The notes under the pieces are model-generated. The model was given only the letters and a program-made list of their open reading frames with translations. It was not told the origin of the DNA and did not search any database. This document shows, piece after piece, positions 3,794 to 22,618 of a stretch of DNA of 35,464 bases (positions within the stretch are counted from its first letter, which is position 1; each line of letters starts with the position of its first letter). Location: the NCBI GenBank assembly GCA_001775255.1, contig MFCJ01000073.1:1-35464 (forward strand), written 5' to 3'. Position numbers and translations under genes: made by a program. The DNA comes from Candidatus Dadabacteria bacterium RIFCSPHIGHO2_12_FULL_53_21. GTDB lineage: Bacteria; Desulfobacterota_D; UBA1144; Nemesobacterales; UBA2774.

Positions 3794-5836
3794 ATGAAGA
3801 GCAAATTGAAGCATCACATCGTGCCGGAGATGGGTCTAAAGCCCGCGGCGCTCGATCATGTAGAACATATCAATGCATTCCGGGATGACGAGAGTTCTTC
3901 AGCCCCTGATAACAGCGAGGGTGTAAGCAGCAGGGATTTCTTTTTCGGGCTTTTAGAGAATGCGCCCGATGTTTTTTTCAGTCTTACCCCGGAAGGGACT
4001 ATTACCTATATCAATCCTGCGATAGAAACGCTGACCGGATGGAAGCGCGACATGTGGATAGGCAGACCGTTTTCTGAACTGCTCGTTAACGATACGGGAG
4101 ATAACACGGCGCGCAATTACCTCGAATTTGAGAATGGGAGGCAGAGAAGGGTTTTTGAAGCTGATATCCTTTTAAGCGGAGGCGGTTCCGTAAGTACCGA
4201 GGTGTCAGTTTCGTTGCGTACGAAGAGAGATAAGGTCACAGGCATCATCGGCTCACTCAGGGACAACACCCGGAGGAAGCTCTCCGATGAGGCGCACGCG
4301 CTTCAGGAGAGACGGATCAGGTCCCTCTATGAGATTTCGGCCGCACCCGGCGTGGGAATCGAAACGCAGCTCGTCGAGACACTCAAGACGGGCGCTGACA
4401 TGCTATCTATGGAAGTTGCGGGAGTCGGCCGGATCGCCGGTAAGAATTGCACCGTTCTATATTGCTATGATGAGATGGGGAGAGTAACTCAGGGCCTCGA
4501 ATGCGATCTTTCAAAGACTTACTGCAAAATTACACTTGCCAACGATGACGTTCTTGCCATAGACCATGTGGGCGAATCCGAGTATCGAAATGAAGAGTTC
4601 TATAGGGACTTCGGCTTCGAGTCCTATATCGGTGTACCTTTGCGGATTAACGGAAAGGTATTCGGGACGCTTAATTTTGCAAGTCCCCATCCGCGGAAGG
4701 AGCCTTTTACAACGGCGGACAAGGATTTTATAAGGCTCATGGGACGCTGGATCAGCACGATGATAGAGCGCAAAAGAGCGGAGGACATGCTGAAGGAAAA
4801 AGAGGAGTTGTACCGCACGCTCGTCGAGAACGCGCATGACCTCATTCTCGAGATATTGTACGACGGACACATAATGTACGCCAGTTCCAATCATAAAGAG
4901 ATATTGGGGTATGAACCCGAGGAGCTTTTCGGGAAGAATGCGTTCGAATTCATGCACCCTGAGGACCGGTCTGCGGTTATGTCTGCATTCATACAGGGGT
5001 TCAGGTCCGGGTCCGCCGGGAGAGCCGTTTACAGGTACAGGCATAAAAACGGAGAGTGGCGCTGGTTCGAGGGTACCGGGAAACCGTTCAGGACGTCGAC
5101 GGGTGAGATTAGGGCCATAGTCGATACGCGTGATATCACTGAACGGAAAAAAACCGACGAACAGATACAGGAATCGCTCATGCAGAAGGAGTCTCTGCTG
5201 AGGGAGATACACCACAGGGTAAAAAACAACCTCCAGGTCATATCGAGCCTGTTGAGCCTCCAGTCCGATTATGCGAAGGACGAGGAGTCTCTCGCCCTCT
5301 TCTATGAGAGCCAGAGCAGGATATCCACTATAGCGTTGATCCACGAAAAGCTCTACCAGTCGAGGAACATAGACGAGATAAAGATGCTCGACTATATTAC
5401 GGACCTGACCAGAAACCTGCTCAGGGTCTATAAAGATTTCGGGGAAAATATACACGTTCAAATAAATGCGTACGATATATCAATAGATGTCGATCAGGCG
5501 ATACCCTGCGGGCTTATCATCAACGAGCTTTTCTCGAATTGCCTCAAACACGCCTTCCATTACCGGGACAGTGAAAATGTGACTCGAAGGACCAGGAACA
5601 AAGTGTCGGTGGAGATAAATTCGGATTCCGACGGGATTCTTACTCTCTCGGTAAGAGACAACGGAGTCGGATTTCCCGATACTACGGACTTCAGGAACAC
5701 GAATACCCTCGGTCTTCAGCTCGTCTGCACTCTTACGGATCAGCTCAAGGGGACAATAGAGCTCCGGAACCAGAACGGGACCATGTTCAATATTGTTTTC
5801 CCGATATCGACGAAGAAAACCAGAGGTAACGAATAA
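3794..5836 (+). CDS. Cytoplasmic PAS-GAF-PAS sensor histidine kinase with HisKA_2-type H-box
   Basis: 680 aa with no obvious TM segment. Two PAS-like blocks (TPEGTITYINPAIETLTGW; ILYDGHIMYASSNHKEILGYEPEEL...YRYRHKNGEWRW) flank a GAF-like block (SYIGVPLRINGKVFGTLNF). H-box is EIHHRVKNNLQVISSLLSLQ, with C-terminal ATPase motifs (NELFSNCLKHAF, DNGVGFP, GLQLV). No receiver gene is adjacent. Confidence 0.85.
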   Translation: MKSKLKHHIVPEMGLKPAALDHVEHINAFRDDESSSAPDNSEGVSSRDFFFGLLENAPDVFFSLTPEGTITYINPAIETLTGWKRDMWIGRPFSELLVNDTGDNTARNYLEFENGRQRRVFEADILLSGGGSVSTEVSVSLRTKRDKVTGIIGSLRDNTRRKLSDEAHALQERRIRSLYEISAAPGVGIETQLVETLKTGADMLSMEVAGVGRIAGKNCTVLYCYDEMGRVTQGLECDLSKTYCKITLANDDVLAIDHVGESEYRNEEFYRDFGFESYIGVPLRINGKVFGTLNFASPHPRKEPFTTADKDFIRLMGRWISTMIERKRAEDMLKEKEELYRTLVENAHDLILEILYDGHIMYASSNHKEILGYEPEELFGKNAFEFMHPEDRSAVMSAFIQGFRSGSAGRAVYRYRHKNGEWRWFEGTGKPFRTSTGEIRAIVDTRDITERKKTDEQIQESLMQKESLLREIHHRVKNNLQVISSLLSLQSDYAKDEESLALFYESQSRISTIALIHEKLYQSRNIDEIKMLDYITDLTRNLLRVYKDFGENIHVQINAYDISIDVDQAIPCGLIINELFSNCLKHAFHYRDSENVTRRTRNKVSVEINSDSDGILTLSVRDNGVGFPDTTDFRNTNTLGLQLVCTLTDQLKGTIELRNQNGTMFNIVFPISTKKTRGNE

Positions 5837-7198: not shown

Positions 7199-8309
7199 TT
7201 AGAGAGTTTTCTCTCCCGCCTGCATCAGAAGAAACGCTTTTATGAATTCGCTCAGGTCGCCGTCAAGAACGGGTTCGACGTTCCCGGTCTCGAATCCGGT
7301 CCTGTGGTCCTTTATCATTCTGTACGGATGGAGCACGTAGGAGCGTATCTGGCTGCCCCACCCGATCTCCTTTTTCGTGGCATGCATCTCGTCCATCTTT
7401 TCCCTCTGTTTCTCCTTCTCGAGCTCGTAGAGCCTCGCTTTCAGGATTTTCATGGCTGTAGCCCGGTTCTGGTGCTGGGAGCGTTCGTTCTGGCAGCTGA
7501 CGACTATCCCCGACGGCATATGGGTTATTCTTATCGCGGAATCCGTCTTGTTAACGTGCTGCCCGCCTGCTCCGCTCGCCCGGTAGGTATCCACCCTCAA
7601 GTCTTTCTCATCTATCTCGACCACTATGCTTTCGTCGATTTCAGGGGATACGAACACCGACGCGAACGAAGTATGCCTTCTCTTATTCGCGTCGAACGGG
7701 GATATCCTGACTAACCTGTGTACCCCGCTTTCACCCTTCAGGTAGCCGAAGGCGTAATCGCCCTTCACGAGGAACGTCGCGCTCTTCATACCGGCCTCGT
7801 CCCCCTCCTGATACTCTATAAATTCAGTTGTAAAACAGTTAAGCTCGGCGTATCTCAGATACATTCGGAGCAGCATCTCGGCCCAGTCCTGGGCTTCGGT
7901 GCCCCCTGCCCCCGCGTTGATCGAGACGATCGCGTTCCTCTCGTCATCGGGCTCGCCGAGTATCCGTTTGAACTCGAGCGTCTCGACCCGGCTCTTGATC
8001 TCCGAGAGCTTCTCCCTGGCTTCCCTCGCTGCCGCCTCGTCTCCCTCCTCGATGGAAAGCTCCTCCAGTACCTCCACGTCCTCGAGGTCGTTCGAGAGTC
8101 TCTTCAGGCCGTCGAGAGCGTTTTTAATACGGGACTGCTCCCTCAGGATTTCCTGCGCCTTCTCGGCGTTGTTCCAGAAACCCTCCTTCCCCGTTATCTC
8201 TTCTAATTCTTTAAGGCGTAAATTCTTTCCGGGGAGGTCAAAGAAACTCTCCCAATACTACGAGTCTCTTCTTAAGTTCCTGTATTTGCTCTTTATTTTC
8301 TCCAAACAT
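7199..8309 (-). CDS. prfB: Peptide chain release factor 2, expressed through a programmed +1 ribosomal frameshift
   Basis: The frame-0 leader from ATG 8309 (SD GGGAGA upstream) reads MFGENKEQIQELKKRLVVLGEFL, then TGA (8238-8240). A +1 shift on CTT TGA C continues DLPGKNLRLKELEEITGKEGFWNN... into the tracked ORF 7199-8077. That ORF carries the RF2 motifs SPF (VRISPFD) and GGQ (SGAGGQHVN). Confidence 0.92.
8237..8243 (-). promoter_or_regulatory. RF2 autoregulatory +1 frameshift site CUU UGA C with an upstream SD-like GGGAGAG
   Basis: Reverse strand reads ...UUG GGA GAG UUU CUU UGA CCU.... This is the same slippery Leu codon plus in-frame UGA-C as the classical prfB site. Confidence 0.9.
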
Positions 8310-10995: not shown

Positions 10996-11925
10996 TCATT
11001 CCGCGCTTTTTCCGCCCGATGATACTTCGTAACATGTGTTGTGTACGGACCCGCACTCCTTTGTTTCCAGCTGAAGCGTAACGTGGGTGATGTGGAATCT
11101 GCCCGACAGCTGGTCCTTGATATCGCTTATGAGCTCTTCACTCTTATGCATGTCGTCCACGACCAGGTGGGCGCTGAGCGCGTCGAATCCCTGAGTGAGA
11201 GTCCATGCGTGGAGGTCGTGCACGCTGAGCACGCCCTCGTGGGAGCAAATCGAGTTCTGAACGGCTTTGAGGTCGACTCCCCGCGGTGTGCCTTCGAGCA
11301 GTATATGCACCGACTCCTTTAATATAACCCACGCGCTCCTCAATATAAGTACCGAGACGAGGACGCTAATGATACTGTCCGCATAATACCATCCGGTCAG
11401 GAGCATCACCACGCCCGCGACTACTGCTCCCGCGGAACCCAGCGTGTCGCTTATAACGTGATAGAGCGCACCCTTGATGTTTAAATTTGCGCTCTGATAC
11501 CTGGACAGCATATAGGCCGAGCCTAAATTCAGGAGCAGGCCCACGGTTGCCACGACCGTCATCTCCAGGCTTTTCACCTCCCGGGGGACCTTAAACCTTT
11601 CGTACGCTTCTATGATAATGACGCCTGAGATAACGAACAGGAGTATCCCGTTGATGAGTGCGGCAAGGATTTCGGCCCTGTAAAACCCGTAGGTATTGCT
11701 GAGTGTCGGCGGTTTAACCGAGAACCAGAGAGCGAGATACGCAAGGGAGAGCGCGAATACGTCCGTCAGCATATGCGCCGCGTCCGAGAGGAGAGCGAGA
11801 CTGCCTGTATAGAACCCTGAAGCCGCCTCCACCACCATGAAGGTGGCGGTAAGTATGAGGACGACGATGAGCGTCTTTTTTTCTTTCGTATTTTCTACGT
11901 CGTGAGAGTGTTCGTGGCGCTCCAT
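10996..11925 (-). CDS. czcD: Cation diffusion facilitator (CzcD/ZitB-like) divalent-metal efflux protein
   Basis: His-rich N-terminus MERHEHSHDVE, six hydrophobic helices, and the HMLTD and HVISD motifs. The tracked ORF extends to a TTG at 11961. The ATG at 11925 is preferred, but the start is uncertain. Confidence 0.8.
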   Translation of the reverse strand: MERHEHSHDVENTKEKKTLIVVLILTATFMVVEAASGFYTGSLALLSDAAHMLTDVFALSLAYLALWFSVKPPTLSNTYGFYRAEILAALINGILLFVISGVIIIEAYERFKVPREVKSLEMTVVATVGLLLNLGSAYMLSRYQSANLNIKGALYHVISDTLGSAGAVVAGVVMLLTGWYYADSIISVLVSVLILRSAWVILKESVHILLEGTPRGVDLKAVQNSICSHEGVLSVHDLHAWTLTQGFDALSAHLVVDDMHKSEELISDIKDQLSGRFHITHVTLQLETKECGSVHNTCYEVSSGGKSAE

Positions 11926-11999
11926 CGGATTAAAAATACATAGACCCGGTCCGTGAGTCAAAGAACCGTTTCGCTTGCGCTATCTTCAAGTCAGCGGGT

Positions 12000-12293
12000 T
12001 TATTGCGGTCTCTTTCTAAAATGTTTTTCCCGCAACGGGTCGCTGTCGATCTCCGATATCAGGTAGGCTATCTGATACTGGTCGCCCGGATAGAAATAAA
12101 GCTTTATCCCCTGAGGCGTTACAAAATACAGCCCCTCTTTTCTGGTATCATCCGGGAGGTCCACTTCGTAGACCGGAAAGCCTACCGTGCCCGCGCCGAT
12201 GTTGACGGATCTTCTTTCATCCCTCAGTTTTTTGATGCTATCTGCGATCTGCCAGACCTTTGGAAATATCTGACCCTTTACCGTTAGCTTCAT
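12000..12293 (-). CDS. Hypothetical 97-aa protein
   Basis: Intact ORF on the same strand as its neighbours, 60 nt downstream of the previous gene. No recognisable motif. Confidence 0.5.
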   Translation of the reverse strand: MKLTVKGQIFPKVWQIADSIKKLRDERRSVNIGAGTVGFPVYEVDLPDDTRKEGLYFVTPQGIKLYFYPGDQYQIAYLISEIDSDPLREKHFRKRPQ

Positions 12294-12353
12294 TCCCGAC
12301 CCCTCAAGTCCCAGTCCCGCCTGATCAGGGCTTTGGACGGCAGCTTATTCGTT

Positions 12354-12716
12354 TTATATTTTTGATATTTGCACCTTCGTAATTATTCCCACACATGTAA
12401 TAATCATATCCAGCTTTTTGTCCCGCTCATAGACGTACCGCTCTCCGAGCTTATTCCCGCATACCGTGCATTCTCCCGCGCCGCCGTCCGTGTCCCACTT
12501 CCCGCATTGTGCGCAATGCATTCCCTTCTCTTCATACCACGCGAGATGAGAGTATATGAGCTCGTTAAGCCCCCTCTTTCCAAGCGAGTCCGCCCACTCG
12601 GACAGGTCGCGTATTATTTTCGCCCTGATCCTTTCCGGAACTTCTCCGAGTTGCCCCGAATATATCTCTTCTTCGTTCACCAGGATTCTGCAGTAAAAAG
12701 TGGAAAGCTCTTCCAT
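12354..12716 (-). CDS. Hypothetical 120-aa protein with a CxxC-x13-CxxC zinc-ribbon-like motif
   Basis: Contains HCAQCGKWDTDGGAGECTVCGNKL. It starts 13 nt after the stop of the hybrid kinase, so it is probably co-transcribed. Confidence 0.55.
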   Translation of the reverse strand: MEELSTFYCRILVNEEEIYSGQLGEVPERIRAKIIRDLSEWADSLGKRGLNELIYSHLAWYEEKGMHCAQCGKWDTDGGAGECTVCGNKLGERYVYERDKKLDMIITCVGIITKVQISKI

Positions 12717-12729
12717 GTCCTGCCGTGTT

Positions 12730-14646
12730 TTATCCGCTCATGGCCTCTGCTCCAAGGACCCTGGATACCGCGATCTGGATCTGGTCCACGGAGAAAGGTT
12801 TTTTAATGATATTATAAGCGCCCTCGTCCGTGAGCTCGTCGGGGAGCTGTTCTCCCGGCCTTGAGCTTATGATAACCACAGTTGAGTTCGGGTCTATCAT
12901 TTTGATTTCTCTCAGAAGCTCGAGGCCGTTTTTATTAGATATGGAGAAGTCGAGGAACGTAATGTCGAAATGATTCTTTTTTATAAGCTCTATCGCCTGT
13001 TCGCCGCTTTCAGCGGTCATCACGTTATGTCCCGTGCTCGAAAGGCATTCACTCACGATGTCTCTGATGAACTCCTCGTCGTCGATGATCAGCACATTCC
13101 CTTTTCTCCTGAGCTCGATCACCTTCGCGTTCTGGAATTTCTCTGCCGGTTCAGATTCCGGGGCCTTCGAGACGGTTTGTATATTCGGGAGGTGAATCGT
13201 GAATGTGGTGCCCTTGTTGAGCTCGCTCGAGACTTCTATCCTGCCGCCGTGTCTCTCTATGATCGCGTATATGACGGAAAGTCCGAGGCCCGTTCCCGAT
13301 TTCGATCCTTCGCTCTGTTTTGTCGTGAAGAACGGCTCGAATATCCTGGGCAGGTTCTCCGGAGGAATGCCTGCCCCCGTATCCGAGAAGTCGATTCTCA
13401 CATAATTGCCGGCGAGCTTCGTGCTGATGGCTATGGCGCCGCCCTGGGGCATGGCGTGTTTCGAGTTAATTGCCAGATTGAGGAATACCTGCTGTATCTC
13501 CCCGAGGTTCATCCTGATGGCCGGGACCTTCTCGTAGCTCCTGAGTATCCTTATACCTTCCGTCTCGAAGGTGTGTTCTACGAGTCCCAGGGCGTCGTCA
13601 ATGATGCCCTCTATCTGGGCGACCTGGAATTTTTCTCCTTTTTGTCTCGAGAATGAAAGGAGCTTGTTCACTATCTCGACAGCCCTGTCGGAAGCCTTCT
13701 CTATCACCTTGAGGTCTTTCCTGGCGCTGTCCAGGTCCTGTCTCGTGAGCGCGAGGCTCGTATAACCGATAATGCCGGAGAGTATGTTGTTGAATTCGTG
13801 CGCCACTCCGGCCGCCAGCTGTCCTACGCCCGACATCTTCGCCGAGTGTATTAGCTGCGCTTCGAGTTTCTTCTTCTCGGTTATATCCTCTGTCGCGGCT
13901 ATCACGCCGAAGATCTCTTTCGTCTCGAAGTCTATCAGCGGCGACAGCGTCACTTCGAGGAACTTGCTGTCGTGTCTCACTTCGTGTTTCGTCGAATATG
14001 ACGGGTCGCTCAATATCTTGGGCACAATTGTGTCAAAATTAATCCCCTGGAATAACGAGCTCAGTTTTTCACCCGCGCAGCTCCTGCCGAATATCTCTGA
14101 GGTCTTCGGGTTTGCGGTTTCGACGATAAGGTCCCTGTCCGTCGTTATAATGCTCTCGATCGTGCTGTTGAGCGTGTTTTCGAGCTGTCTGTTCCTCTCC
14201 CGGACCTTGAGCTCGAGGTTGGTGTTCAATTCCTTGAGGTCGCTGAGCAGGCGGGTGTTCTCCTTGTAGAGCTCGTACCTGTCGGCGGCATGCTCGATTA
14301 CGCTTCTGAGTTTCCCGTAATCGAGAGGTTTGATCAAATAGTCGAAGGCTCCGTTCTGAACCGCCTCTACCGCTGTTTCCAGCGAAGCGAATCCCGTCAT
14401 GAGTATTACCGGTATGTTGGGGTCTTTCTTCTTGATTTCTTCGAGGAGGTCGATGCCGCTTTTTACAGGCATTTTGATGTCCGAGAGCACCACGTCGAAG
14501 TGGGATGACCTCAGGTACTCGGCTGCTTTCTCGCAGTTGTTGGCGACTACGACTTCGTAACCTTCCTTGGTCAGTATGTCGGATATGATTTTTAATATAA
14601 GCTGCTCGTCGTCAACAACCAGCACCCGCTTCTTCTTGTCGTTCAT
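12730..14646 (-). CDS. Hybrid sensor kinase: REC - coiled coil - PAS - HisKA - HATPase_c - REC
   Basis: Start chosen at MNDKKKRVLVVDDEQ (ATG 14646, SD GGGAGAGG upstream). N-terminal REC has LSDIKMP, LMTGF and YLIKP. PAS-like block ITTDRDLIVETANPKTSEIFG. H-box MSGVGQLAAGVAHEFNNILSGI. ATPase motifs NLAINSKHAM, DTGAGIP, GTGLGLS. C-terminal REC has VLIIDDEEF, FLDFSI, VVIISS and IIKKP. Confidence 0.88.
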   Translation of the reverse strand: MNDKKKRVLVVDDEQLILKIISDILTKEGYEVVVANNCEKAAEYLRSSHFDVVLSDIKMPVKSGIDLLEEIKKKDPNIPVILMTGFASLETAVEAVQNGAFDYLIKPLDYGKLRSVIEHAADRYELYKENTRLLSDLKELNTNLELKVRERNRQLENTLNSTIESIITTDRDLIVETANPKTSEIFGRSCAGEKLSSLFQGINFDTIVPKILSDPSYSTKHEVRHDSKFLEVTLSPLIDFETKEIFGVIAATEDITEKKKLEAQLIHSAKMSGVGQLAAGVAHEFNNILSGIIGYTSLALTRQDLDSARKDLKVIEKASDRAVEIVNKLLSFSRQKGEKFQVAQIEGIIDDALGLVEHTFETEGIRILRSYEKVPAIRMNLGEIQQVFLNLAINSKHAMPQGGAIAISTKLAGNYVRIDFSDTGAGIPPENLPRIFEPFFTTKQSEGSKSGTGLGLSVIYAIIERHGGRIEVSSELNKGTTFTIHLPNIQTVSKAPESEPAEKFQNAKVIELRRKGNVLIIDDEEFIRDIVSECLSSTGHNVMTAESGEQAIELIKKNHFDITFLDFSISNKNGLELLREIKMIDPNSTVVIISSRPGEQLPDELTDEGAYNIIKKPFSVDQIQIAVSRVLGAEAMSG

Positions 14647-17185
14647 CTGCCTCTCCCGCAGTAATATTATAGTTATTTGATGGAAGTTCAATCGTAATTG
14701 TCGTGCCTGACCCTTTCTCGCTCTCAACTATTATCCTGCCTTTGTGTTTTTCTATGATCTTATAGGCTATCGAGAGTCCGAGACCGGTTCCCATATCCTT
14801 CTTCGTAAAGAATGGATCAAAAATCTTAGTGATGTCTTCCTTATCTATTCCCACGCCCGTGTCCTTGAAGTGTATGTAAACCTTGTCGTTGCTCCCGCTC
14901 GCGAATTCGTCCCACCGGGTGGACGTCTTTATCGAAAAGTCCCCGCCCTTCGGCATCGCCTGCACCGCGTTTAGAATGATATTGATGAATACCTGCCAGA
15001 GCTGATTGGGATCCGCCATTATCTGAGGCAGATCCTCGTCGAGGCTCAGCGCGAGGTTTATGTTGTTGTCGGAGAGCTGCTTGCGTACGAGGATAACGAC
15101 GTTCTCGAGTACGCTGTTAATGCCCACACTCTCGAAATAGGGCGGCTCGGCTTTTGAGAACTTGAGCAGGCTGTCTATGAGCCTGTTCGTCCTGTCGATT
15201 TCATGCTTTATATAATCGAGGTACTCTCCCACGACTTCTGTATTTTCTTTGTCCATCATGTAGGTGGAGATGTAGTATCTGGCGCCTTCGATGATGTTGA
15301 GAGGGTTCCTTATCTCGTGTGCAACGCCCGCCGCGAGCTGTCCGATCGCGGACATCTTTTCCGCGTGCACGAGCTGCGCCTGGGTATCTTTGAGCTCCTT
15401 GTTCGTTTTTTCAAGCCTTTTCGCGTAGTCCTCGACGAGTTTGAACGCGAGCGCGTTTTCGAGCGCAATAGCGCTCTGGTTGGCCATGAGCTTGAGCAGA
15501 TTCACGTCACGCGACGTATACGATAGCCCCGACTTCTTATCGCCCAATGCTATAAAACCGATGAGTTGTTTTTTGAAAAAGAGCGGGATGATGAGCGACG
15601 CGTTAAACCTCTCGAATTCCAGCATGAGTCTTTGAGAGTTGTGAAAATACCTCTCGTCCGCTATGAGGTCTTCCTTGAATATCTCGTTTCCGTGGAAATT
15701 GAGCTGCTGTATGAGGATGTTGTCCTCTTCGAGCGTCGTGTCCGAGGAGCTTCGGACCTCGTCTTTTTTAAAATACCGCTCATACGACCCCAGGTCCTGG
15801 TTGTATATGAATACGGAGACCGGGCTCGAGAACATCGTGTTCTCCACGATTTCGATGATCTTGTCGATTATCTTTTCAAGGCTGAGGAGTGAGGTCATTG
15901 CATAGCTCACTTCCTCCACGGTCCCCCTGTAGTCGTATTTCTTTCTGAAGAAGGTCAGGTCCACCAGGTCCTGTATCCGGTTCTTAAGCGGGTTGAGTGC
16001 AATGACGAGGAATCCGCTCAGGATCACGAAGAAAGCGGGGTTCTTCCAGCCGCCGTACTTTGCGAAAGCGACATTGAATCCGAGCACCGTGAGGGCGAAT
16101 ACGCATCCGACTGCCCCGGTGAGGAGCCCGTATGTGAGCGCCTTTTCAATGATGACGTCGATGTCGAAAAGCTTGTGTTTCACTATGGCGTATGCGATCG
16201 ACACGGGGAATATGATCACGGGGAGAGCCATCAGGTTATAGGGCATGCTTATTTTAAAGACCGTGATGCTGGCTACCACCGAAGCCGGGACGAGCAGGCC
16301 GAAAATGCAGCCGAGTAAGATTATTTGTGCGCGTTGTTTTTCAAGCGCCGACGACGGATTCATGTAGGTCATGAGAGAAGAGATCGGGAAAATCATTGTG
16401 CTCAGGACCACGTAAATCCAGCTTACGGTATTAATGTGTTTCCATATATCATATTTGTAAAAGAAGATGAACTGAAGAACGAAAAGCATCGCGGAAATAA
16501 ACAAAAAGAATATCGATACTAAGTTGTGCGTCATTCTCTTCAGCTTGGCGTCAGACGGGAAAATAAACATCAGATATATTCCGAACAGCGGGCTGAAAAT
16601 CCATGAAAAGAAGGTCAGCTGATCGAACAGATAGACGGCCTGTGCGTCGAACGAGCCGACAAACCAAATACATATCGAAGCACAGAAGAGGAAAAACGCC
16701 TTGCTGGCCCTCAGGTACGGCTTCATCTGAAGAACCATCACGCCGATGATCAGGAACACTACGCCTATCACGTATATGATTCCGAACAGGAGAAGCATCT
16801 CCCGCAGCGTCAATCTCTCGACCGGGATCGTAACGTTGAATGAGTCGCCGTTTCTTTCTATTGTGTAATCCACACTTGAACCCACGGGGAGCTTGTCAAT
16901 TACCTCAAATACGTCATTGGGGATTCTGACAGGTATACCGTTTACTTCCTTTATCTTATCCTTGAACCTTTTGAGCATGTCGCCGTTGACTGTTTTCGGC
17001 GAAATATCTGTTATGACGAGGTTTTTATAGAAGAAAAATCCGGGGTAAGGTTTGCCCACCCTGTTTAGACCTAACAGGAAATTCCCTATGCAGAAGATGA
17101 TCAGAACGAACGCAACAATACTGAATACCGATTTCTGGATGTTCGTTCCGTTCCCTTTCGAAATGGATAATTGTCTGTCAACCAT
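14612..17185 (-). CDS. Polytopic membrane sensor histidine kinase: TM - PDZ-like - multi-TM block - GAF - HisKA - HATPase_c
   Basis: 857 aa. One N-terminal TM is followed by a PDZ-like segment (VNGIPVRIPNDVFEVIDKLPVGSSVDYTIERNG). About 8 hydrophobic helices follow, then a GAF-like block (LIIPLFFKKQLIGFIALGDKK...AIALENA). H-box MSAIGQLAAGVAHEIRNPLN. ATPase motifs NIILNAVQAM, DTGVGI, GTGLGLSIA. It starts 4 nt after the stop of the upstream gene, and its 3' end overlaps the next gene by 35 nt. Confidence 0.88.
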   Translation of the reverse strand: MVDRQLSISKGNGTNIQKSVFSIVAFVLIIFCIGNFLLGLNRVGKPYPGFFFYKNLVITDISPKTVNGDMLKRFKDKIKEVNGIPVRIPNDVFEVIDKLPVGSSVDYTIERNGDSFNVTIPVERLTLREMLLLFGIIYVIGVVFLIIGVMVLQMKPYLRASKAFFLFCASICIWFVGSFDAQAVYLFDQLTFFSWIFSPLFGIYLMFIFPSDAKLKRMTHNLVSIFFLFISAMLFVLQFIFFYKYDIWKHINTVSWIYVVLSTMIFPISSLMTYMNPSSALEKQRAQIILLGCIFGLLVPASVVASITVFKISMPYNLMALPVIIFPVSIAYAIVKHKLFDIDVIIEKALTYGLLTGAVGCVFALTVLGFNVAFAKYGGWKNPAFFVILSGFLVIALNPLKNRIQDLVDLTFFRKKYDYRGTVEEVSYAMTSLLSLEKIIDKIIEIVENTMFSSPVSVFIYNQDLGSYERYFKKDEVRSSSDTTLEEDNILIQQLNFHGNEIFKEDLIADERYFHNSQRLMLEFERFNASLIIPLFFKKQLIGFIALGDKKSGLSYTSRDVNLLKLMANQSAIALENALAFKLVEDYAKRLEKTNKELKDTQAQLVHAEKMSAIGQLAAGVAHEIRNPLNIIEGARYYISTYMMDKENTEVVGEYLDYIKHEIDRTNRLIDSLLKFSKAEPPYFESVGINSVLENVVILVRKQLSDNNINLALSLDEDLPQIMADPNQLWQVFINIILNAVQAMPKGGDFSIKTSTRWDEFASGSNDKVYIHFKDTGVGIDKEDITKIFDPFFTKKDMGTGLGLSIAYKIIEKHKGRIIVESEKGSGTTITIELPSNNYNITAGEADERQEEAGAGC

Positions 17186-17189
17186 TCGT

Positions 17190-19949
17190 TTATTCGCTTA
17201 TTGCCGGAATTTTTGAATACATCTCCCAGTGGAGGTCGACCTTTCCGCCCAGGTTCTCAACTATGCGCCGCGAGCCGAGGTTGTCTTCCAGAACCCATGT
17301 GCCGGCCACCTTCTCGTACCCGTTCCCGATCATCGCCTCACAGACCCTGCTGAGGAGGACGGTGCCGATCCTCCTTCCCTTGAATTCGTCCATGAGACCC
17401 ATGATCATTAATACGCCTTCCCTGATCCCCCTTAACCGGAGGGGCAGCGTTACGAGCTTGTGGGGTTTCAGCTCCCCGTTTAATCCCCTGAATACGGAAG
17501 CGTATTGCGGGAATCCCCCTATGAAACCTATTGCTTCGCCCCCGGACTCCGCGATAAGCCAGTATTCGGGATCGATCAGACTCTTGAACTCGTCCGCGAT
17601 CTCTATGAACTCATCGGCGTCGAACGGGACATTGCCCCAGAGCTGAGCGAGGGAATTGTTGAATATCCTGACCACGCTCCTGACCTCGTTCGCCCAGTCG
17701 GATTTGTTCATCCGCCTTATCTTTACATCCGGCAGCTCCGATTCCCGGGAGTATTTCATTATCGCTTTCACGTTATCGGGGGATTTAAGGTCTATCGTGT
17801 AATGCAGGAGTTTTTTAACCGGCCCGAACCCCGCATTCGTGAAATAGTCGTGGTAGTAGGGCTGTGTGTATACCTGGAGGAAGGACGGTATCTTCCCGTA
17901 GTTGCTCGAGAGCAGGCCGCCGCCGAAGAGTCCGAATATCCCGTTTGCCGGTCCTTGTATCTCCGTACACCCCTCTCTTACGAGAAATTCCCCGGCTTTG
18001 GCAAGGAGAAGGCCGACCGCTTCATCTTTGTCCGGGAGGGCTTCGAAGAACCCCAAGAACCCGACGTTGGTATCGTGATAACGGTTGTAGTAATTGTCTA
18101 TGAACGCGCTTACGGTGCCGACTATCTCTCCTCTCTCCTCGACAACGAACCTCTTCCCGTAAACCTTCCTGAAGTAGAAATAATCGTTCGAAATTAGCTT
18201 AACGTGGTCTTTTATAAGGAAGTAGGGGACCCACGCCGGGTAATCCTTATAAACCTTCCATGAGAACCTGACTGACCTTTCGATCTCGTCTTTGGAGGAT
18301 ATTTCTCTCACGGTGTATTTTTCGTCTTCGGGCACGCTGAGTGAGACCGGCCTGCCTATTATCCCGAATTCCCTCCCCAGCTTCTCGACCACTTCGAGCG
18401 TCCTGTCGATGTCTTCGCGGGTGTGTGTGGCCATAAGGCTGAACCTGAACCTCTCCTGCCCCTTAGGCACGGCAGGGTGCGGTATCGCGTTTACGTATAT
18501 CCCTTCCTCGTGGAACCTCTTGCTCATCTTTTTCTGCGTGAGCTCGTCGCCGGTCATTACCGGGATGATCGCCGACTCGGTCTGTCCCGTGTTGAATCCC
18601 AGGGATTTCAGGCTTTCCTTCATGTACTTGATATTTTTCCAGAGGTTCTCGTGGAGAGACTTGTCGGTTTCCATTACTTCGATCGCGGCTAGTACGGAGG
18701 CTGCGACCGAGGGGGGGAAATTGGACGAGAAGAAAAAGGACCTGGTGTAGTATCTGAGGTAGCTTACTACTTCTTTTGTCGAGGCTATGAAGCCGCCGAT
18801 GCCGCCCAGGGATTTGCTCAGCGTGCCCATTATGATATCTATCTCGCCGGGCTTCATTTTGAAATGGCTGGGCGTCCCCTTTCCCCTGTCCCCTATGACA
18901 CCCGTGGCGTGAGCTTCGTCCACCATGACCTTGGCGCCGTACCTGTGGGCGGTCTCCGCGATCTGCCGGAGCGGGGCTATGTCCCCGTCCATGCTGTATA
19001 CGCCGTCCACTATCACGATCTTTCCTTTAAAATTGTCTTTATTTCTTTTTAATACGTTTTCGAGGCTCCCGACGTCCGAGTGTTTGAACGTCCTGAACGT
19101 GCCCGTAGACAGCATGCAGCCGTCTATAATGCTCGCGTGAGCGAGTCTGTCTATGACCGCGAGGTCTTCGCTCTTTACGAGGGCCTGTATGGATCCGAGG
19201 TTCGTGACGTAGCCGCTCGGAAAGATTATCGCGTCCTCGGCTCCCTTGAGCTCAGCGAGTTTCATTTCCAGCTGCCTGTGTATGTCGAACGACCCTGCCA
19301 GGAGCGGGACCGAGCCTGCGCCCGCACCGTATTTATCGATATTTTCTTTGGCTATTTTCATGACCCTCGGATGAGATGTGAGCCCGAGGTAGTTGTTGCT
19401 CCCCATCATGATCATCTCTTTTTTCTTTCCGGTAAAGTCGTCGTCGATGATCACTCTGTGCGCCGAGGGCGACGCCAGGGGTCTTCTGTACCGTATATAC
19501 CCCTTCGACGCCATGTCTAGTCCGTACTGCCAGAATACCTCTGCCTTTTTAAACAGGTCCTCGTCCGGTATATCTGCGAAATCGGATAGATAATAGTCGT
19601 CGGAATTGAGAGTGTGTTTACTCTTTTCGATGTAGCTCTGTAATTTTGCCCTGTCCGAATCGTATATGTTTATGAATTCGACCCCGATACCGTGCTCGCC
19701 CGTACCGTTCGTTTCGATCCTCTTTACTTCACAGTAGGCCTTGACGGGAAATGCCCCGGATAAATCACATTCGAGAAGGAGTTTTGTACCAGGCTTGAAT
19801 TCGTCTTCAGTTTGTATGAATAGTCCTTTGTAAGAGAGGTCTTTTGCCAAGCCGATCATCATGCCGGAATTTTTTGAATAGACATGAAAATTTACAGGGA
19901 TCCTTTCATGGCTCCTCCGGTCTTTTGATTCCCTGATAATTATCCCCAT
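17190..19949 (-). CDS. Three-domain fusion: PilZ (c-di-GMP receptor) - alpha-oxoamine synthase (class-II PLP aminotransferase; BioF/Kbl/SPT/CqsA family) - large GNAT-type N-acyltransferase region
   Basis: 919 aa.
- Residues ~8-100 carry both PilZ signatures: RxxxR (RRSHER), then DxSxxG (DLSYKG) 22 aa later.
- Residues ~150-535 carry alpha-oxoamine synthase motifs: MGSNNYLGL, DEAHATGVIG, SMDGD and the PLP-lysine motif GTLSKSLGGIGGF.
- Residues ~545-919 are a separate region ending in GNAT motif A (FKGRRIGTVLLSRVCEAM...GYEKV).
SD GAGGGGG lies upstream of the ATG. Confidence 0.85.
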   Translation of the reverse strand: MGIIIRESKDRRSHERIPVNFHVYSKNSGMMIGLAKDLSYKGLFIQTEDEFKPGTKLLLECDLSGAFPVKAYCEVKRIETNGTGEHGIGVEFINIYDSDRAKLQSYIEKSKHTLNSDDYYLSDFADIPDEDLFKKAEVFWQYGLDMASKGYIRYRRPLASPSAHRVIIDDDFTGKKKEMIMMGSNNYLGLTSHPRVMKIAKENIDKYGAGAGSVPLLAGSFDIHRQLEMKLAELKGAEDAIIFPSGYVTNLGSIQALVKSEDLAVIDRLAHASIIDGCMLSTGTFRTFKHSDVGSLENVLKRNKDNFKGKIVIVDGVYSMDGDIAPLRQIAETAHRYGAKVMVDEAHATGVIGDRGKGTPSHFKMKPGEIDIIMGTLSKSLGGIGGFIASTKEVVSYLRYYTRSFFFSSNFPPSVAASVLAAIEVMETDKSLHENLWKNIKYMKESLKSLGFNTGQTESAIIPVMTGDELTQKKMSKRFHEEGIYVNAIPHPAVPKGQERFRFSLMATHTREDIDRTLEVVEKLGREFGIIGRPVSLSVPEDEKYTVREISSKDEIERSVRFSWKVYKDYPAWVPYFLIKDHVKLISNDYFYFRKVYGKRFVVEERGEIVGTVSAFIDNYYNRYHDTNVGFLGFFEALPDKDEAVGLLLAKAGEFLVREGCTEIQGPANGIFGLFGGGLLSSNYGKIPSFLQVYTQPYYHDYFTNAGFGPVKKLLHYTIDLKSPDNVKAIMKYSRESELPDVKIRRMNKSDWANEVRSVVRIFNNSLAQLWGNVPFDADEFIEIADEFKSLIDPEYWLIAESGGEAIGFIGGFPQYASVFRGLNGELKPHKLVTLPLRLRGIREGVLMIMGLMDEFKGRRIGTVLLSRVCEAMIGNGYEKVAGTWVLEDNLGSRRIVENLGGKVDLHWEMYSKIPAISE

Positions 19950-20064
19950 GATATTACCCCCTCTGCAAAATTATTTTCGCATCGCCCTTTAAGTTAGTTA
20001 AGATAATTGTTTATAGCTTTGTTATAATAATCCTCGAATATTAGAATTATTGCAAGTATGCTTT

Positions 20065-20160
20065 CTTCGGTAACCCAACCGCCATAGACCCTGCCAAATA
20101 GTCCTTAGGCTTGTGGCTTTGCGTCCTACCCTTTCGGATAGTTTGCCGTTTCGGAAGGTC
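20065..20160 (-). promoter_or_regulatory. c-di-GMP-I (GEMM-I) riboswitch aptamer
   Basis: Reverse strand: GACCUUCCGAAACGGCAAACUAUCCGAAAGGGUAGGACGCAAAGCCACAAGCCUAAGGACUAUUUGGCAGGGUCUAUGGCGGUUGGGUUACCGAAG.
- Conserved GEMM-I blocks are GGCAAAC, GGACGCAAAGCC and GGGUUACCGA.
- The hairpin CUAUCC-GAAA-GGGUAG is capped by a GAAA tetraloop.
- The second helix carries both halves of the 11-nt tetraloop receptor (CCUAAG / UAUGG).
- It lies about 115 nt upstream of the ATG at 19949. Confidence 0.9.
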
Positions 20161-20176
20161 ACTACCCTTTTTTGGA

Positions 20177-20205
20177 AGTTTAGTGCAATTTGTTTTTTGT
20201 TTCAA
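20177..20205 (-). promoter_or_regulatory. Candidate sigma70-type promoter for the riboswitch-led operon
   Basis: Reverse strand reads TTGAAA-N17-TAAACT, ending about 16 nt upstream of the aptamer. Sequence match only. Confidence 0.4.
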
Positions 20206-21634: not shown

Positions 21635-22618
21635 TCAGAGATAACCGTTTTCCTTAAACCACTTTACGGTGCTTTCTATCGTTTGCTCGAGAGGCCTGGG
21701 GGAGAACCCCAGCTCCCGCACCGCCTTTGAATTATCGAAATACCAGAAGTGCTTCGACCCCTTTACGGAGTCTATGTCCATGGCGACGTAGTTGGGGGCG
21801 GATATGCCGAGTATACGCTCGGCGATATAGGCGCCCATGTAAGCGAGCGGGTAGGGTATCTTCATCCTGGGCCTCGGGATTCCCGTTACCTTCTCTATAA
21901 CCTCGAAGAGCTCTTTGATCGTGATGTTGCGGTTGCTCAGTATGTAGCGCTCCCCGAGCCTGCCCTTCTCGGCCGCGAGGAGGTGACCCAGGGCCACGTC
22001 TTCGGCGTCGACAACGTTAATGCCTCCGTCCGTATATCCCGGAAGCCGCCCCTTGCAGTACCAGAGTATAAATCCGGAGGTCGAGACGTAGACGTCTCCT
22101 GCGCCTATCACTATGGAAGGGTTAACGATTACGAGCGGCAGGCCTTTCCTGAAAAATTTCAGGGCTTCCTCTTCGGCATAATATTTCGATTTTATATACT
22201 GGATGTCAGTGCTTTCGGGGTCAAACGGGGTCTCTTCGTCGGCTACCCCCTTCCCGGGTTTTAACCCTATCGCCGCTACGCTGCTGGTATATACGGCTTT
22301 CTTAACCCCTGCCTCGAGAGCCGCCGTGAATACGTTGTTCGTTCCCTTGACGTTAATATCTTCCATCTTTTTATAGTCGGCCTGCTTGAACGATACGATT
22401 CCCGCCGCGTGGTAAATCGTATCGCAGCCTTCTATCGCTTTCCTGATGGAGTCTATATCGGTTACGTCTCCGTAAACCCTCTCGGCATTTAGATCGTCGA
22501 TATTTATCGTTTTACTGGTCTTTCTGAGGAGTATCCTTAACTTGTCTCCCCTCTCCGCCAGTTTTCTCGCTATGTGAGAGCCCAGGAGGCCGGTCGCCCC
22601 TGTAACCAGTGTAGCCAT
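21635..22618 (-). CDS. NAD(P)-dependent epimerase/dehydratase-family SDR (HpnA / dihydroflavonol-reductase-like)
   Basis: 327 aa. Rossmann motif VTGATGLLGSHI, then YTSS and a YxxxK catalytic pair (YIKSK). Confidence 0.8.
   Translation of the reverse strand: MATLVTGATGLLGSHIARKLAERGDKLRILLRKTSKTINIDDLNAERVYGDVTDIDSIRKAIEGCDTIYHAAGIVSFKQADYKKMEDINVKGTNNVFTAALEAGVKKAVYTSSVAAIGLKPGKGVADEETPFDPESTDIQYIKSKYYAEEEALKFFRKGLPLVIVNPSIVIGAGDVYVSTSGFILWYCKGRLPGYTDGGINVVDAEDVALGHLLAAEKGRLGERYILSNRNITIKELFEVIEKVTGIPRPRMKIPYPLAYMGAYIAERILGISAPNYVAMDIDSVKGSKHFWYFDNSKAVRELGFSPRPLEQTIESTVKWFKENGYL

Follow-up and report, generated by a model that had tools for sequence, protein, structure and literature searches.

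A predicted c-di-GMP-controlled operon for ceramide-type lipid synthesis in an uncultured Dadabacteria bacterium

Organization of the Gene Cluster

Does the genome of the uncultured Candidatus Dadabacteria bacterium RIFCSPHIGHO2_12_FULL_53_21 (assembly GCA_001775255.1, contig MFCJ01000073.1) contain an operon in which the biofilm signal c-di-GMP controls the synthesis of an envelope lipid, and do the sensor kinase genes next to the enzyme gene belong to it? These questions were addressed in a stretch of 35,464 nt, hereafter the window, to which all coordinates refer. All features given with coordinates below lie on its minus strand.

Based on ORF and domain searches, the first gene (17190..19949) encodes a 919-aa fusion protein composed of a PilZ domain, an Spt-like alpha-oxoamine synthase and a bCerS-type tandem-GNAT N-acyltransferase. 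It is followed by the genes for an 857-aa sensor kinase (HK1, 14612..17185) and a hybrid kinase (HK2, 12730..14646, with ATG at 14646 as the start). Then come two small ORFs, one for a 120-aa zinc-ribbon protein (CxxC...CxxC, 12354..12716) that matches no known family and one for a beta-rich protein of 97 aa (12000..12293). In the ORF map, the fusion gene and HK1 are separated by 4 nt, the 3′ end of HK1 overlaps the start of HK2 by 35 nt, and spacers of 13 and 60 nt precede the 120-aa and 97-aa ORFs, respectively. A scan detected no terminator-like site in any minus-strand intergenic gap of the operon. The arrangement proposed in an earlier sequence-only reading, namely a riboswitch, the fusion gene, two kinase genes and two small ORFs on one strand, was reproduced down to each of the gaps. 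That reading had also placed the c-di-GMP source and the output regulator outside the window, and domain searches indeed found no GGDEF, EAL or HD-GYP domain and no DNA-binding response regulator in any of its substantial ORFs.

Predicted Elements Reading c-di-GMP

A c-di-GMP-I (GEMM-I) riboswitch aptamer (20066..20157) precedes the fusion gene. It matched Rfam RF01051 with 80.2 bits (E 2e-14, gathering score 35) and scored 109.7 bits with a purpose-built covariance model. Among nine orthologues, 10 of the 21 helix pairs were changed on both sides, and this covariation supports the riboswitch helices. The equivalents of G20, A47 and C92 are retained (G20 as G, C92 as C), and G20 and C92 are the positions defining c-di-GMP specificity (PMC6140456). 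In 12 Dadabacteria loci, the riboswitch precedes the fusion gene; it was absent from the variants L007, L008 and L009 and marginal in L019.

Upstream of the aptamer, at a distance of about 20 nt, a consensus scan located the promoter-like site TTGAAA-17 nt-TAAACT (20177..20205). Sites matching the consensus this well are expected by chance (nine found, 8.1 expected); in the alignment of nine orthologous loci the site is conserved, with invariant TTG and ACTA.A.TT positions. The AT-rich, conserved 5′ leader of 115 nt that links the aptamer to the start codon (19950..20065) has a mean identity of 77% among orthologous loci and ends in the Shine–Dalgarno sequence AGAGGGGG. An expression platform was not recognisable in the leader, nor was a terminator or an anti-terminator (terminator scan, RNAalifold), and RNAalifold gave no conserved pairs. 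Based on RNAfold, the 5′ flank of the aptamer may pair with the Shine–Dalgarno sequence, which is a weak hint that the riboswitch could be a translational ON switch.

The second element lies in the protein itself, where Pfam recognised PilZ (residues 10–108), Aminotran_1_2 (178–520) and Acetyltransf_1 (787–901). The PilZ domain (19626..19922; PF07238, 51–54 bits against a cut-off of 22.5) carries the motifs RRSHER (RxxxR) and DLSYKG ([D/N]xSxxG). Full-length homologues of the fusion protein number 36 (43–99% identity), and both c-di-GMP motifs are kept in 33 of the 36 three-domain homologues. The two c-di-GMP-reading elements claimed beforehand were both recovered, one by Rfam and one by Pfam, and we infer that both bind this ligand. 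The PilZ census preprints searched make no mention of a PilZ–synthase fusion, and sphingolipid synthesis was not found as a downstream gene class of c-di-GMP-I riboswitches in the literature searched.

Acyltransferase Domain and the Question of a Reductase

The C-terminal domain (residues 541–919, 17193..18329) shares 26% identity over 373 aa with YghO of E. coli BL21 (BLASTP, E 4e-41), and hhalign aligned the two end to end (probability 100, E 2.4e-45). An AF2 model (pLDDT 84), whose Foldseek matches were tandem GNATs, predicts a tandem GNAT fold. Judged by these alignments, what had been read as a GNAT is a full-length homologue of the YghO/CC_1154 bacterial ceramide synthase (bCerS). YghO is listed as the orthologue of Caulobacter CC_1154 (PMC9386255), which was named cerS and is normally found in a separate transcription unit (PMC11324152). 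In 57 of 69 loci from outside the Dadabacteria, the bCerS homologue was directly preceded by a synthase gene. With cruder ORF calling in the same loci, an SDR reductase was the second gene upstream of bCerS in 29 of them and nearby in 36, and a PAP2 gene adjoined bCerS in 22. These arrangements agree with the CerR-Spt-bCerS clusters previously reported across phyla (PMC11334938).

No clear ceramide reductase was found near the Dadabacteria operon. The closest SDR is an HpnA-like extended one (21635..22618), encoded two genes upstream, with aroC between it and the riboswitch. An HMM of Spt-linked reductases gave it 174.5 bits (E. coli CerR, 188.5), and its best curated family was HpnA, where it reached 336 bits with the cut-off at 367.65. 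This SDR is a possible ceramide reductase candidate, its membership in the system not being established.

Sensor Kinases and Small Proteins

HK1 begins with one TM segment, a PDZ-like extracytoplasmic stretch and nine more TM segments, after which Pfam recognised GAF, HisKA and HATPase_c domains. Support for the PDZ-like stretch is weak (Pfam E 0.13; NCBIfam MamE and HtrA PDZ regions; 27% identity to a PDZ protein). HK2 has the Pfam order REC, PAS, HisKA, HATPase_c, REC. The gene order synthase, HK1, HK2 and small-ORF pair was found in all 20 Dadabacteria loci, including those with another acyltransferase partner, and HK1 follows the synthase gene either directly or, in L007, past inserted genes. 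An HK1/HK2 overlap of 11–35 nt is kept in most of the related loci examined; in L094, the two genes are adjacent without overlap. The PilZ–synthase has different partners within the Dadabacteria: a fused bCerS, a FemAB-like protein accompanied by an O-methyltransferase and an FAD oxidoreductase, or else an unassigned protein of 606–615 aa. The 97-aa protein is highly conserved: its homologues fall into 32 clusters, none below 65% identity and all from the Dadabacteria lineage. Its AF2 model (pLDDT 87.5) is beta-rich, with no fold match in the PDB. The zinc-ribbon gene accompanies it in Dadabacteria loci.

It could be that the reading is right for the enzyme and its control by c-di-GMP at two levels, while the kinases and small ORFs are unrelated neighbors, held in place by the rigid gene order of the lineage. 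Across the Dadabacteria loci, the synteny of the kinases is matched by that of aroC, dnaB, the SDR gene and further housekeeping genes; therefore, synteny alone is no proof of a functional link and may reflect inherited gene order. Also, none of the 69 loci of other phyla has homologues of HK1, HK2 or the small ORFs beside Spt-bCerS, and in L005, a 698-aa gene splits HK2 from the small-ORF pair. On the other hand, the tight junctions of the fusion gene, HK1 and HK2, uninterrupted by a terminator, argue against mere neighborhood, as does L007, where the replacement acyltransferase overlaps the HK1 start. So do two other loci: in L092, a receiver-domain gene and histidine kinases adjoin a PilZ–synthase lipid cluster, and in an Armatimonadetes MAG (L095), a cNMP-binding kinase, an REC–Spt-like fusion and bCerS are encoded by overlapping genes. 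The latter operon is an independent parallel. We regard unrelated neighbors as rather unlikely, and the linkage of the kinases and small ORFs to the lipid enzyme as plausible. The neighborhood conservation that the sequence-only reading called for holds within the Dadabacteria and does not extend to the 69 loci of other phyla.

Synthase Domain and the Nature of the Product

The PLP-dependent synthase domain (residues 140–535, 18345..19532) contains the motifs HASIIDG, DEAH and GTLSKS (PLP lysine) and shares 35% identity with Spt of E. coli BL21 (E 4e-73). With the synthases linked to bCerS in other phyla it scored 335–379 bits, and with PDB structures of KBL, AONS and SPT at most 301 bits (282–301 for KBL and SPT). 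In NCBIfam, it fell under all SPT cut-offs and scored equally against KBL and BioF models. Based on these comparisons, the domain is in the Spt-like group that partners bCerS across phyla. Together with the bCerS homology, this placement points to a fusion of Spt and bCerS, and for this reason a ceramide-type product is strongly favored. The ceramide- or aminolipid-type envelope lipid, at first one of two options, has thereby become specific as to both enzyme families.

The other option was a pair like CqsA/CqsS or LqsA/LqsS, in which the synthase would make a hydrophobic signal, diffusible or membrane-resident, the 10-TM HK1 would sense it and c-di-GMP would license its production. Such a pair would fit the constant core of PilZ–synthase, HK1 and HK2 across the Dadabacteria, combined with an acylating or tailoring partner that varies, as is typical for diversifying small-molecule pathways; furthermore, the large polytopic domain of HK1 would suit the sensing of a lipid ligand. 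However, CqsA structures gave 125 bits, less than any other synthase family of solved structure, and the NCBIfam autoinducer-synthase model reached 209 of the required 428 bits. Profile searches matched HK1 to no CqsS-type receptor, giving distant HisKA_7TM matches, and the ceramide-synthase family fused here has Spt-like synthases and SDR reductases as its partners in kinase-free loci of many phyla. A signal-and-receptor pair is accordingly improbable.

That the protein serves threonine or biotin metabolism as a common KBL- or BioF-type enzyme with a generic GNAT, its riboswitch governing central metabolism, is hardly credible: although the top PDB match is a KBL/AONS enzyme (300.6 bits) and the best NCBIfam scores belong to a BioF/Kbl-family subfamily, KBL and BioF (390–413 bits), the latter are all below the curated cut-offs, bCerS-linked synthases score higher than the structures, the fused domain spans the whole of YghO, and domain searches of the window revealed no biotin or threonine-pathway genes adjoining the operon.

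Proposed Pathway

Based on the above results, we consider it probable that the locus is a c-di-GMP-controlled operon for a ceramide backbone, with the kinases included as a phosphorelay. One polypeptide would perform the two committed reactions of the bacterial ceramide pathway. In the first, the Spt-like PLP domain would condense a fatty acyl thioester with an amino acid, for which serine or a near analogue is the likeliest candidate; the bCerS domain would then N-acylate the resulting long-chain alpha-amino ketone to an oxo-ceramide-type lipid. Expression of the fusion gene would be set by the GEMM-I aptamer upstream of it, and enzyme activity would be set allosterically by the N-terminal PilZ domain, by analogy with PilZ-gated polysaccharide synthases. 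Co-transcription with the fusion gene is most likely for HK1 and HK2, which are translationally coupled, and for the genes of the two small lineage-specific proteins. They would form a phosphorelay that monitors or answers the lipid-changed state of the membrane or envelope, with its output elsewhere in the genome. The earlier description of the operon as novel applies to its regulation and to the fusion, whereas the chemistry is that of a known pathway. A connection of c-di-GMP with bacterial sphingolipid synthesis would here be predicted for the first time.

Comparison with Known Systems

The Dadabacteria operon shares both enzyme families with the Spt/bCerS/CerR pathway of Caulobacter crescentus and E. 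coli BL21(DE3) (PMC9386255, PMC11324152, PMC11334938), and its synthase-then-bCerS order with the CerR-Spt-bCerS clusters of other phyla. In contrast to the Caulobacter and E. coli pathway, the enzymes are joined in a single polypeptide that carries a PilZ domain at its N-terminus and is encoded behind a c-di-GMP riboswitch, two sensor kinases are present, and an ACP, an acyl-ACP synthetase and a clear CerR are absent.

The aptamer resembles GEMM-I riboswitches such as Vc2 in its full length, its specificity positions and its covarying helices. It differs from them in its leader, which has no recognisable terminator or anti-terminator, and in that the regulated protein itself bears a c-di-GMP receptor domain. 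With CqsA/CqsS and LqsA/LqsS, the locus has in common an alpha-oxoamine-synthase-family gene adjoining that of a polytopic sensor histidine kinase, but its synthase domain is only distantly related to CqsA and is fused to a ceramide synthase, and the kinase has PDZ, GAF and 10 TM segments.

Biosynthetic enzymes gated by PilZ domains include cellulose synthase BcsA and alginate Alg44. As in these systems, a canonical PilZ domain is fused to or paired with an enzyme making an envelope component, which implies allosteric licensing by c-di-GMP. Here the PilZ domain is N-terminal, and its target is a soluble-type PLP and GNAT lipid enzyme instead of a membrane glycosyltransferase. In the Armatimonadetes operon, the input is phosphorylation via a receiver domain, not c-di-GMP, and bCerS is a separate gene. 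Nevertheless, both systems place a signaling domain at the N-terminus of an Spt-like synthase, and in the Armatimonadetes operon, the next gene downstream encodes bCerS, with a kinase gene in the same string of overlapping genes.

Organization of the Locus

All elements of the locus lie on the minus strand. The c-di-GMP-I aptamer (20157..20066, Rfam RF01051) precedes a gene (19949..17190) for a 919-aa fusion protein, in which Pfam recognized PilZ, Aminotran_1_2 and Acetyltransf_1, corresponding to a PilZ domain, an Spt-like alpha-oxoamine synthase (residues 140–535) and a predicted bCerS-type N-acyltransferase (residues 541–919). The gene for the 857-aa histidine kinase HK1 (17185..14612; GAF, HisKA, HATPase_c) begins 4 nt after the fusion gene and overlaps by 35 nt with that for the hybrid kinase HK2 (from ATG 14646 to 12730; REC, PAS, HisKA, HATPase_c, REC). 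They are followed by two small ORFs: a 120-aa ORF with a CxxC...CxxC pattern (12716..12354), 13 nt after HK2, and, 60 nt later, a 97-aa ORF (12293..12000). The order, gaps, overlap and domains claimed by the sequence-only reading were thereby reproduced by the ORF map, translations and Pfam. Its list of missing parts was also correct: Pfam scans of every substantial ORF of the window revealed no GGDEF, EAL, HD-GYP or DNA-binding response regulator. No terminator-like sites were found in the minus-strand intergenic gaps. Promoter-like hexamers (20205..20177, minus strand) matched the consensus at chance level only and were nearly invariant across nine orthologous loci.

A gene of the cation-diffusion-facilitator (zinc transporter) family (10996–11961, minus strand) lies on the same strand, 38 nt past the 97-aa ORF, and the transcript could run on into it. 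This gene holds that position only in the closer relatives L001–L004, not in L005–L009. Elsewhere in the window, a further cytoplasmic sensor kinase with PAS-GAF-PAS-HisKA_2-HATPase_c architecture is encoded at 3794–5836 on the plus strand, and no partner response regulator for it was found within the window. It should also be noted that prfB, encoding release factor 2 (7199–8308, minus strand), contains the classical programmed +1 frameshift site CTT TGA C (approximately 8243–8237), preceded by a GGGAG Shine-Dalgarno-like element.

Predicted c-di-GMP-Reading Elements

The aptamer matched RF01051 with 80.2 bits (gathering score 35, E 2e-14) over model positions 1–87 of 87 and was the sole Rfam family detected in the whole window. 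In an alignment of nine orthologues, 97.9% of cells were paired over the 21 modelled pairs of the aptamer helices, and both-side changes occurred in 10 of these pairs. The covariation score was reached by none of 500 shuffles, and slid controls were 29–44% paired. Two elements were invariant in the nine orthologues: the G that directly precedes the GC-AAA helix and the ACC/GCC that follows the last helix. We infer from our own mapping to Vc2 numbering that these positions are the equivalents of Vc2 G20 and C92, which would favor c-di-GMP over c-GAMP. Both G20 and C92 have ligand-contact roles, and the replacement of G20 by A defines the c-GAMP-sensing relatives (PMC6140456).

A covariance model built here located the aptamer ahead of the fusion gene in 12 Dadabacteria loci, the window and 11 others. 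With the same model, no convincing match was obtained in 69 Spt-bCerS loci from other phyla; among the Dadabacteria variants, L007, L008 and L009 lack the aptamer, and L019 was marginal. A permissive Rfam scan of L087, L019 and L007 also failed to find the aptamer.

The 115-nt leader that links the aptamer to the start codon (19950–20065, minus strand) showed 77% identity across orthologues whose proteins are 65–95% identical. RNAalifold found no conserved secondary structure in it, no terminator was detected, and its single-sequence MFE was no better than that of shuffles (z = −0.78). In thermodynamic folding (RNAfold), pairing was possible between the Shine-Dalgarno sequence and a pyrimidine-rich stretch that flanks the aptamer on its 5′ side, and locking the aptamer increased the predicted Shine-Dalgarno accessibility in 9 of 11 orthologues, in some only marginally. 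These models give a weak hint that the riboswitch may act as a translational ON switch. The leader also holds an invariant CTTGCAAT...GAT.ATT stretch, which looks like a weak second promoter (TTGCAA-17-GATTAT).

The PilZ domain of the fusion protein scored 51–54 bits (Pfam cut-off 22.5) and carries the motifs RRSHER from residue 11 and DLSYKG from residue 37. Of the 36 three-domain homologues, 33 carry both motifs, as do most PilZ-synthase proteins of the two-domain type, distant ones included. Judged by sequence, aptamer and PilZ domain alike are canonical for their families, and the proposal that c-di-GMP is read once by the leader RNA and once by the enzyme itself holds at the level of the presence of both elements. 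In the literature searched, PilZ domain censuses included, we found no link of c-di-GMP or PilZ to Spt or to bacterial sphingolipid synthesis.

Synthase and Acyltransferase Domains of the Fusion Protein

Full-length homologues of the fusion protein were 43–99% identical. The synthase domain has the alpha-oxoamine-synthase fold (Aminotran_1_2, 201 bits), with HASIIDG, DEAH and GTLSKS in the translation representing the PLP lysine and His/Asp/His motifs. It shares 35% identity with E. coli BL21 Spt (E 4e-73) and scored 335–379 bits against 29 bCerS-linked synthases. Against solved structures, the same query gave at most 301 bits, for KBL/AONS, followed by 293 for Sphingobacterium SPT, 282 for E. 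coli KBL and 125 for CqsA. It remained under every curated SPT cut-off (NF047600, 385/640; NF047599, 345/500; NF047603, 290/670 bits), and therefore we label it "Spt-like" and not a certified SPT. Scoring higher against them than against any solved structure, the domain groups with the synthases genomically linked to bCerS and CerR, and it is itself fused to bCerS.

The C-terminal 380 residues gave just a partial GNAT match in Pfam, and a PDB sequence search with this domain returned nothing significant. With 17 sequences as input, AlphaFold (pLDDT 84) predicted a tandem-GNAT fold for it; the best PDB fold matches were MAB_4324 (a glucosamine N-acetyltransferase) and the mycothiol synthase MshD, with FemX lower in the list. 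By BLASTP, the domain is 26% identical to E. coli BL21 YghO in an alignment (E 4e-41) that spans 373 of 380 aa, and profile comparison by hhalign gave a probability of 100 (E 2.4e-45). The gene yghO of the sphingolipid cluster of E. coli BL21(DE3) is the orthologue of the Caulobacter "aca" gene CC_1154 (PMC9386255), which has been named cerS (PMC11324152). Thus, the proposal of a ceramide- or aminolipid-type module was upheld and, through the YghO homology and the scores against the bCerS-linked synthases, sharpened: the fusion is predicted to join the two committed steps of bacterial ceramide synthesis in a single chain.

To place the acyltransferase, one genome per species was scanned with the bCerS domain, which gave more than 538 relatives. 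Among the 80 best loci, 69 came from other phyla, including Nitrospirota, Elusimicrobiota, Ignavibacteria, Bacteroidota, Planctomycetota, Zixibacteria and Desulfuromonadales. In these 69 loci, the bCerS homologue is a free-standing gene of about 370–380 aa, and an alpha-oxoamine-synthase gene lies directly upstream of it in 57. Neighbor clustering, which used cruder ORF calls, placed an extended-SDR "epimerase" gene in the vicinity of bCerS in 36 loci, and in 29 of these it lies two genes upstream. Such a neighborhood of SDR, synthase and bCerS corresponds to the CerR-Spt-bCerS arrangement described for many phyla by Ding et al. (PMC11334938). With the same cruder calls, a divergent PAP2-family (PAP2_3/PAP2_C) membrane protein of about 300 aa was encoded beside bCerS, on its downstream side, in 22 loci (e.g., L060:3457-4362), and the protein may act as head-group (phospho-)transferase on ceramide. 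A second bCerS paralogue was seen two genes downstream of the first at L083:5702-6823 and in three other loci.

The window also contains an SDR gene (21635–22618, minus strand), located two genes upstream, beyond aroC. Its product scored 174.5 bits against an HMM of Spt-linked reductases, for which E. coli CerR gave 188.5. However, its best curated family was HpnA, the hopanoid-associated epimerase (336 bits vs. cut-off 367.65), which the Spt-linked reductases match at only 137–140 bits. Since the protein is HpnA-like in the NCBIfam comparison, its assignment as CerR was set aside as unproven, and it could instead belong to hopanoid or sterol chemistry. The same SDR gave 242 bits against the sterol demethylase SdmB.

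Kinases and Small ORFs

The N-terminus of HK1 consists of one TM segment, some 90 residues of weakly PDZ-like sequence and nine further hydrophobic segments. The HisKA and HATPase_c matches of both kinases were above the Pfam cut-off and, together with the two REC domains of HK2, this domain content predicts a two-component phosphorelay. The 120-aa and 97-aa proteins matched no Pfam or NCBIfam family. Homologues of the latter were found only in the Dadabacteria lineage, and its AF2 model (pLDDT 87.5) had no PDB fold match (best E 0.49, TM <0.33).

The association of the fusion gene with the kinases and small ORFs, regarded as an operon in the sequence-only reading, stood within Dadabacteria: as far as the contigs extend, HK1 and HK2 are downstream of the synthase gene in all 20 loci, and the small-ORF pair is present in 17. 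The HK1 and HK2 genes overlap by 11–35 nt in most related loci read, and in L094 they are adjacent with no overlap. Outside this lineage the association failed, since none of the 69 other-phylum loci contained homologues of HK1, HK2 or the small ORFs. In addition, aroC and other housekeeping neighbors were equally conserved in the Dadabacteria lineage. The last two observations count against a functional reading of the kinases.

Across the Dadabacteria loci, the synthase-HK1-HK2 core is kept while the acyltransferase partner varies. In L007:11722-15428, a two-domain PilZ-synthase gene is followed by genes for an opposite-strand FAD oxidoreductase, an O-methyltransferase and a FemAB-like acyltransferase, which replaces the fused bCerS and whose gene overlaps the HK1 start. 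This suggests a different, tailored lipid product. The variants L008, L009 and L094 have no acyltransferase at all; in these, a 606–615-aa protein with no significant Pfam domain is encoded directly upstream of the PilZ-synthase gene (L008:8098-9945, L009:8101-9930 and L094:6115-7935). The 615-aa L008 protein and the FemAB-like L007 acyltransferase were considered as bCerS counterparts and rejected, as neither had detectable homology to bCerS. In L094, a second HpnA-like SDR gene precedes that of the 606–615-aa protein.

Two further loci count in favor of a functional tie between kinases and lipid. In the Armatimonadetes MAG JACQGK010000002 (L095:6589-10714), three genes, each overlapping the next, encode a cNMP-binding histidine kinase, a fusion of REC with an alpha-oxoamine synthase, and a full-length bCerS/YghO homologue (hhalign E 6e-45). 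By its predicted domains, this is an independent operon with a signaling domain fused to an Spt-like enzyme. In the metagenomic non-Dadabacteria locus L092:7684-17285, a PilZ-like/synthase gene is located amid genes for an AMP-dependent ligase, a 509-aa protein, a stand-alone receiver and histidine kinase(s), and the cluster further holds a FemAB-like acyltransferase, an ACP and a B12/radical-SAM enzyme. Here, too, two-component genes are intermixed with a cluster of lipid type. Therefore, signal-transduction control of the enzyme pair seems to have arisen more than once.

Proposed Function of the Locus

Based on the above results, we regard the feature as real, as well conserved and as coherent in its mechanism. 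We consider it fairly probable that its three aspects hold together, namely the identity of the enzyme, its double control by c-di-GMP and a functional tie of the co-operonic kinases to the lipid. We are more confident of the enzyme's identity and of its two c-di-GMP readers, taken alone, than of this joint statement, and less confident of the role of the kinases.

The sequence-only reading had also offered a signal pair of the CqsA/CqsS or LqsA/LqsS kind, with the synthase making a hydrophobic signal sensed by the adjacent kinase. This proposal keeps some standing because the synthase and the kinases together are what is most constant in the cluster. It is nevertheless unlikely: the synthase domain reached 209 bits against the autoinducer-synthase family NF005526 (cut-off 428), and CqsA structures scored 125 bits vs. 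282–301 for KBL/SPT, so that membership in CqsA/LqsA was rejected. No CqsS/LqsS model was among the HK1 matches listed. That the product of the preferred ceramide-type pathway serves, beyond its structural role in the membrane, as a ligand or membrane cue for the polytopic domain of HK1 seems to us improbable. If true, c-di-GMP, sphingolipid synthesis and the phosphorelay would form one closed circuit, a bacterial "ceramide signaling" module, and the kinase/REC-Spt/bCerS operon of L095 would be its independently evolved counterpart.

Comparison with Known Systems

Among biosynthetic functions, c-di-GMP is best known for targeting exopolysaccharides, adhesins and motility. With both a riboswitch and a PilZ domain on the committed steps of ceramide synthesis, the ceramide-type module would represent a new kind of target, and the principle of the PilZ-gated synthase would widen from sugars to lipids. 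This suggests that envelope-lipid remodeling is part of the sessile program of at least one widespread uncultured phylum. The REC-Spt parallel in L095 suggests, in turn, that control of the enzyme pair by signaling domains is a recurring solution. The enzymes of the bacterial ceramide pathway were defined only in 2019–2022, and the locus offers a concrete hypothesis for a regulator of bacterial sphingolipid synthesis. A natural single-chain Spt-bCerS would also be a convenient object for studying reaction order and substrate channeling after expression in a heterologous host.

Synthase-acyltransferase fusions as such are carried by Actinobacteria and by M. tuberculosis BioF2, and the chemistry is that of the known bacterial ceramide pathway. 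What is new is the combination of a single-chain Spt-bCerS, a PilZ domain at its N-terminus and a c-di-GMP riboswitch ahead of the gene, as well as the tight packing of this unit with a predicted phosphorelay.
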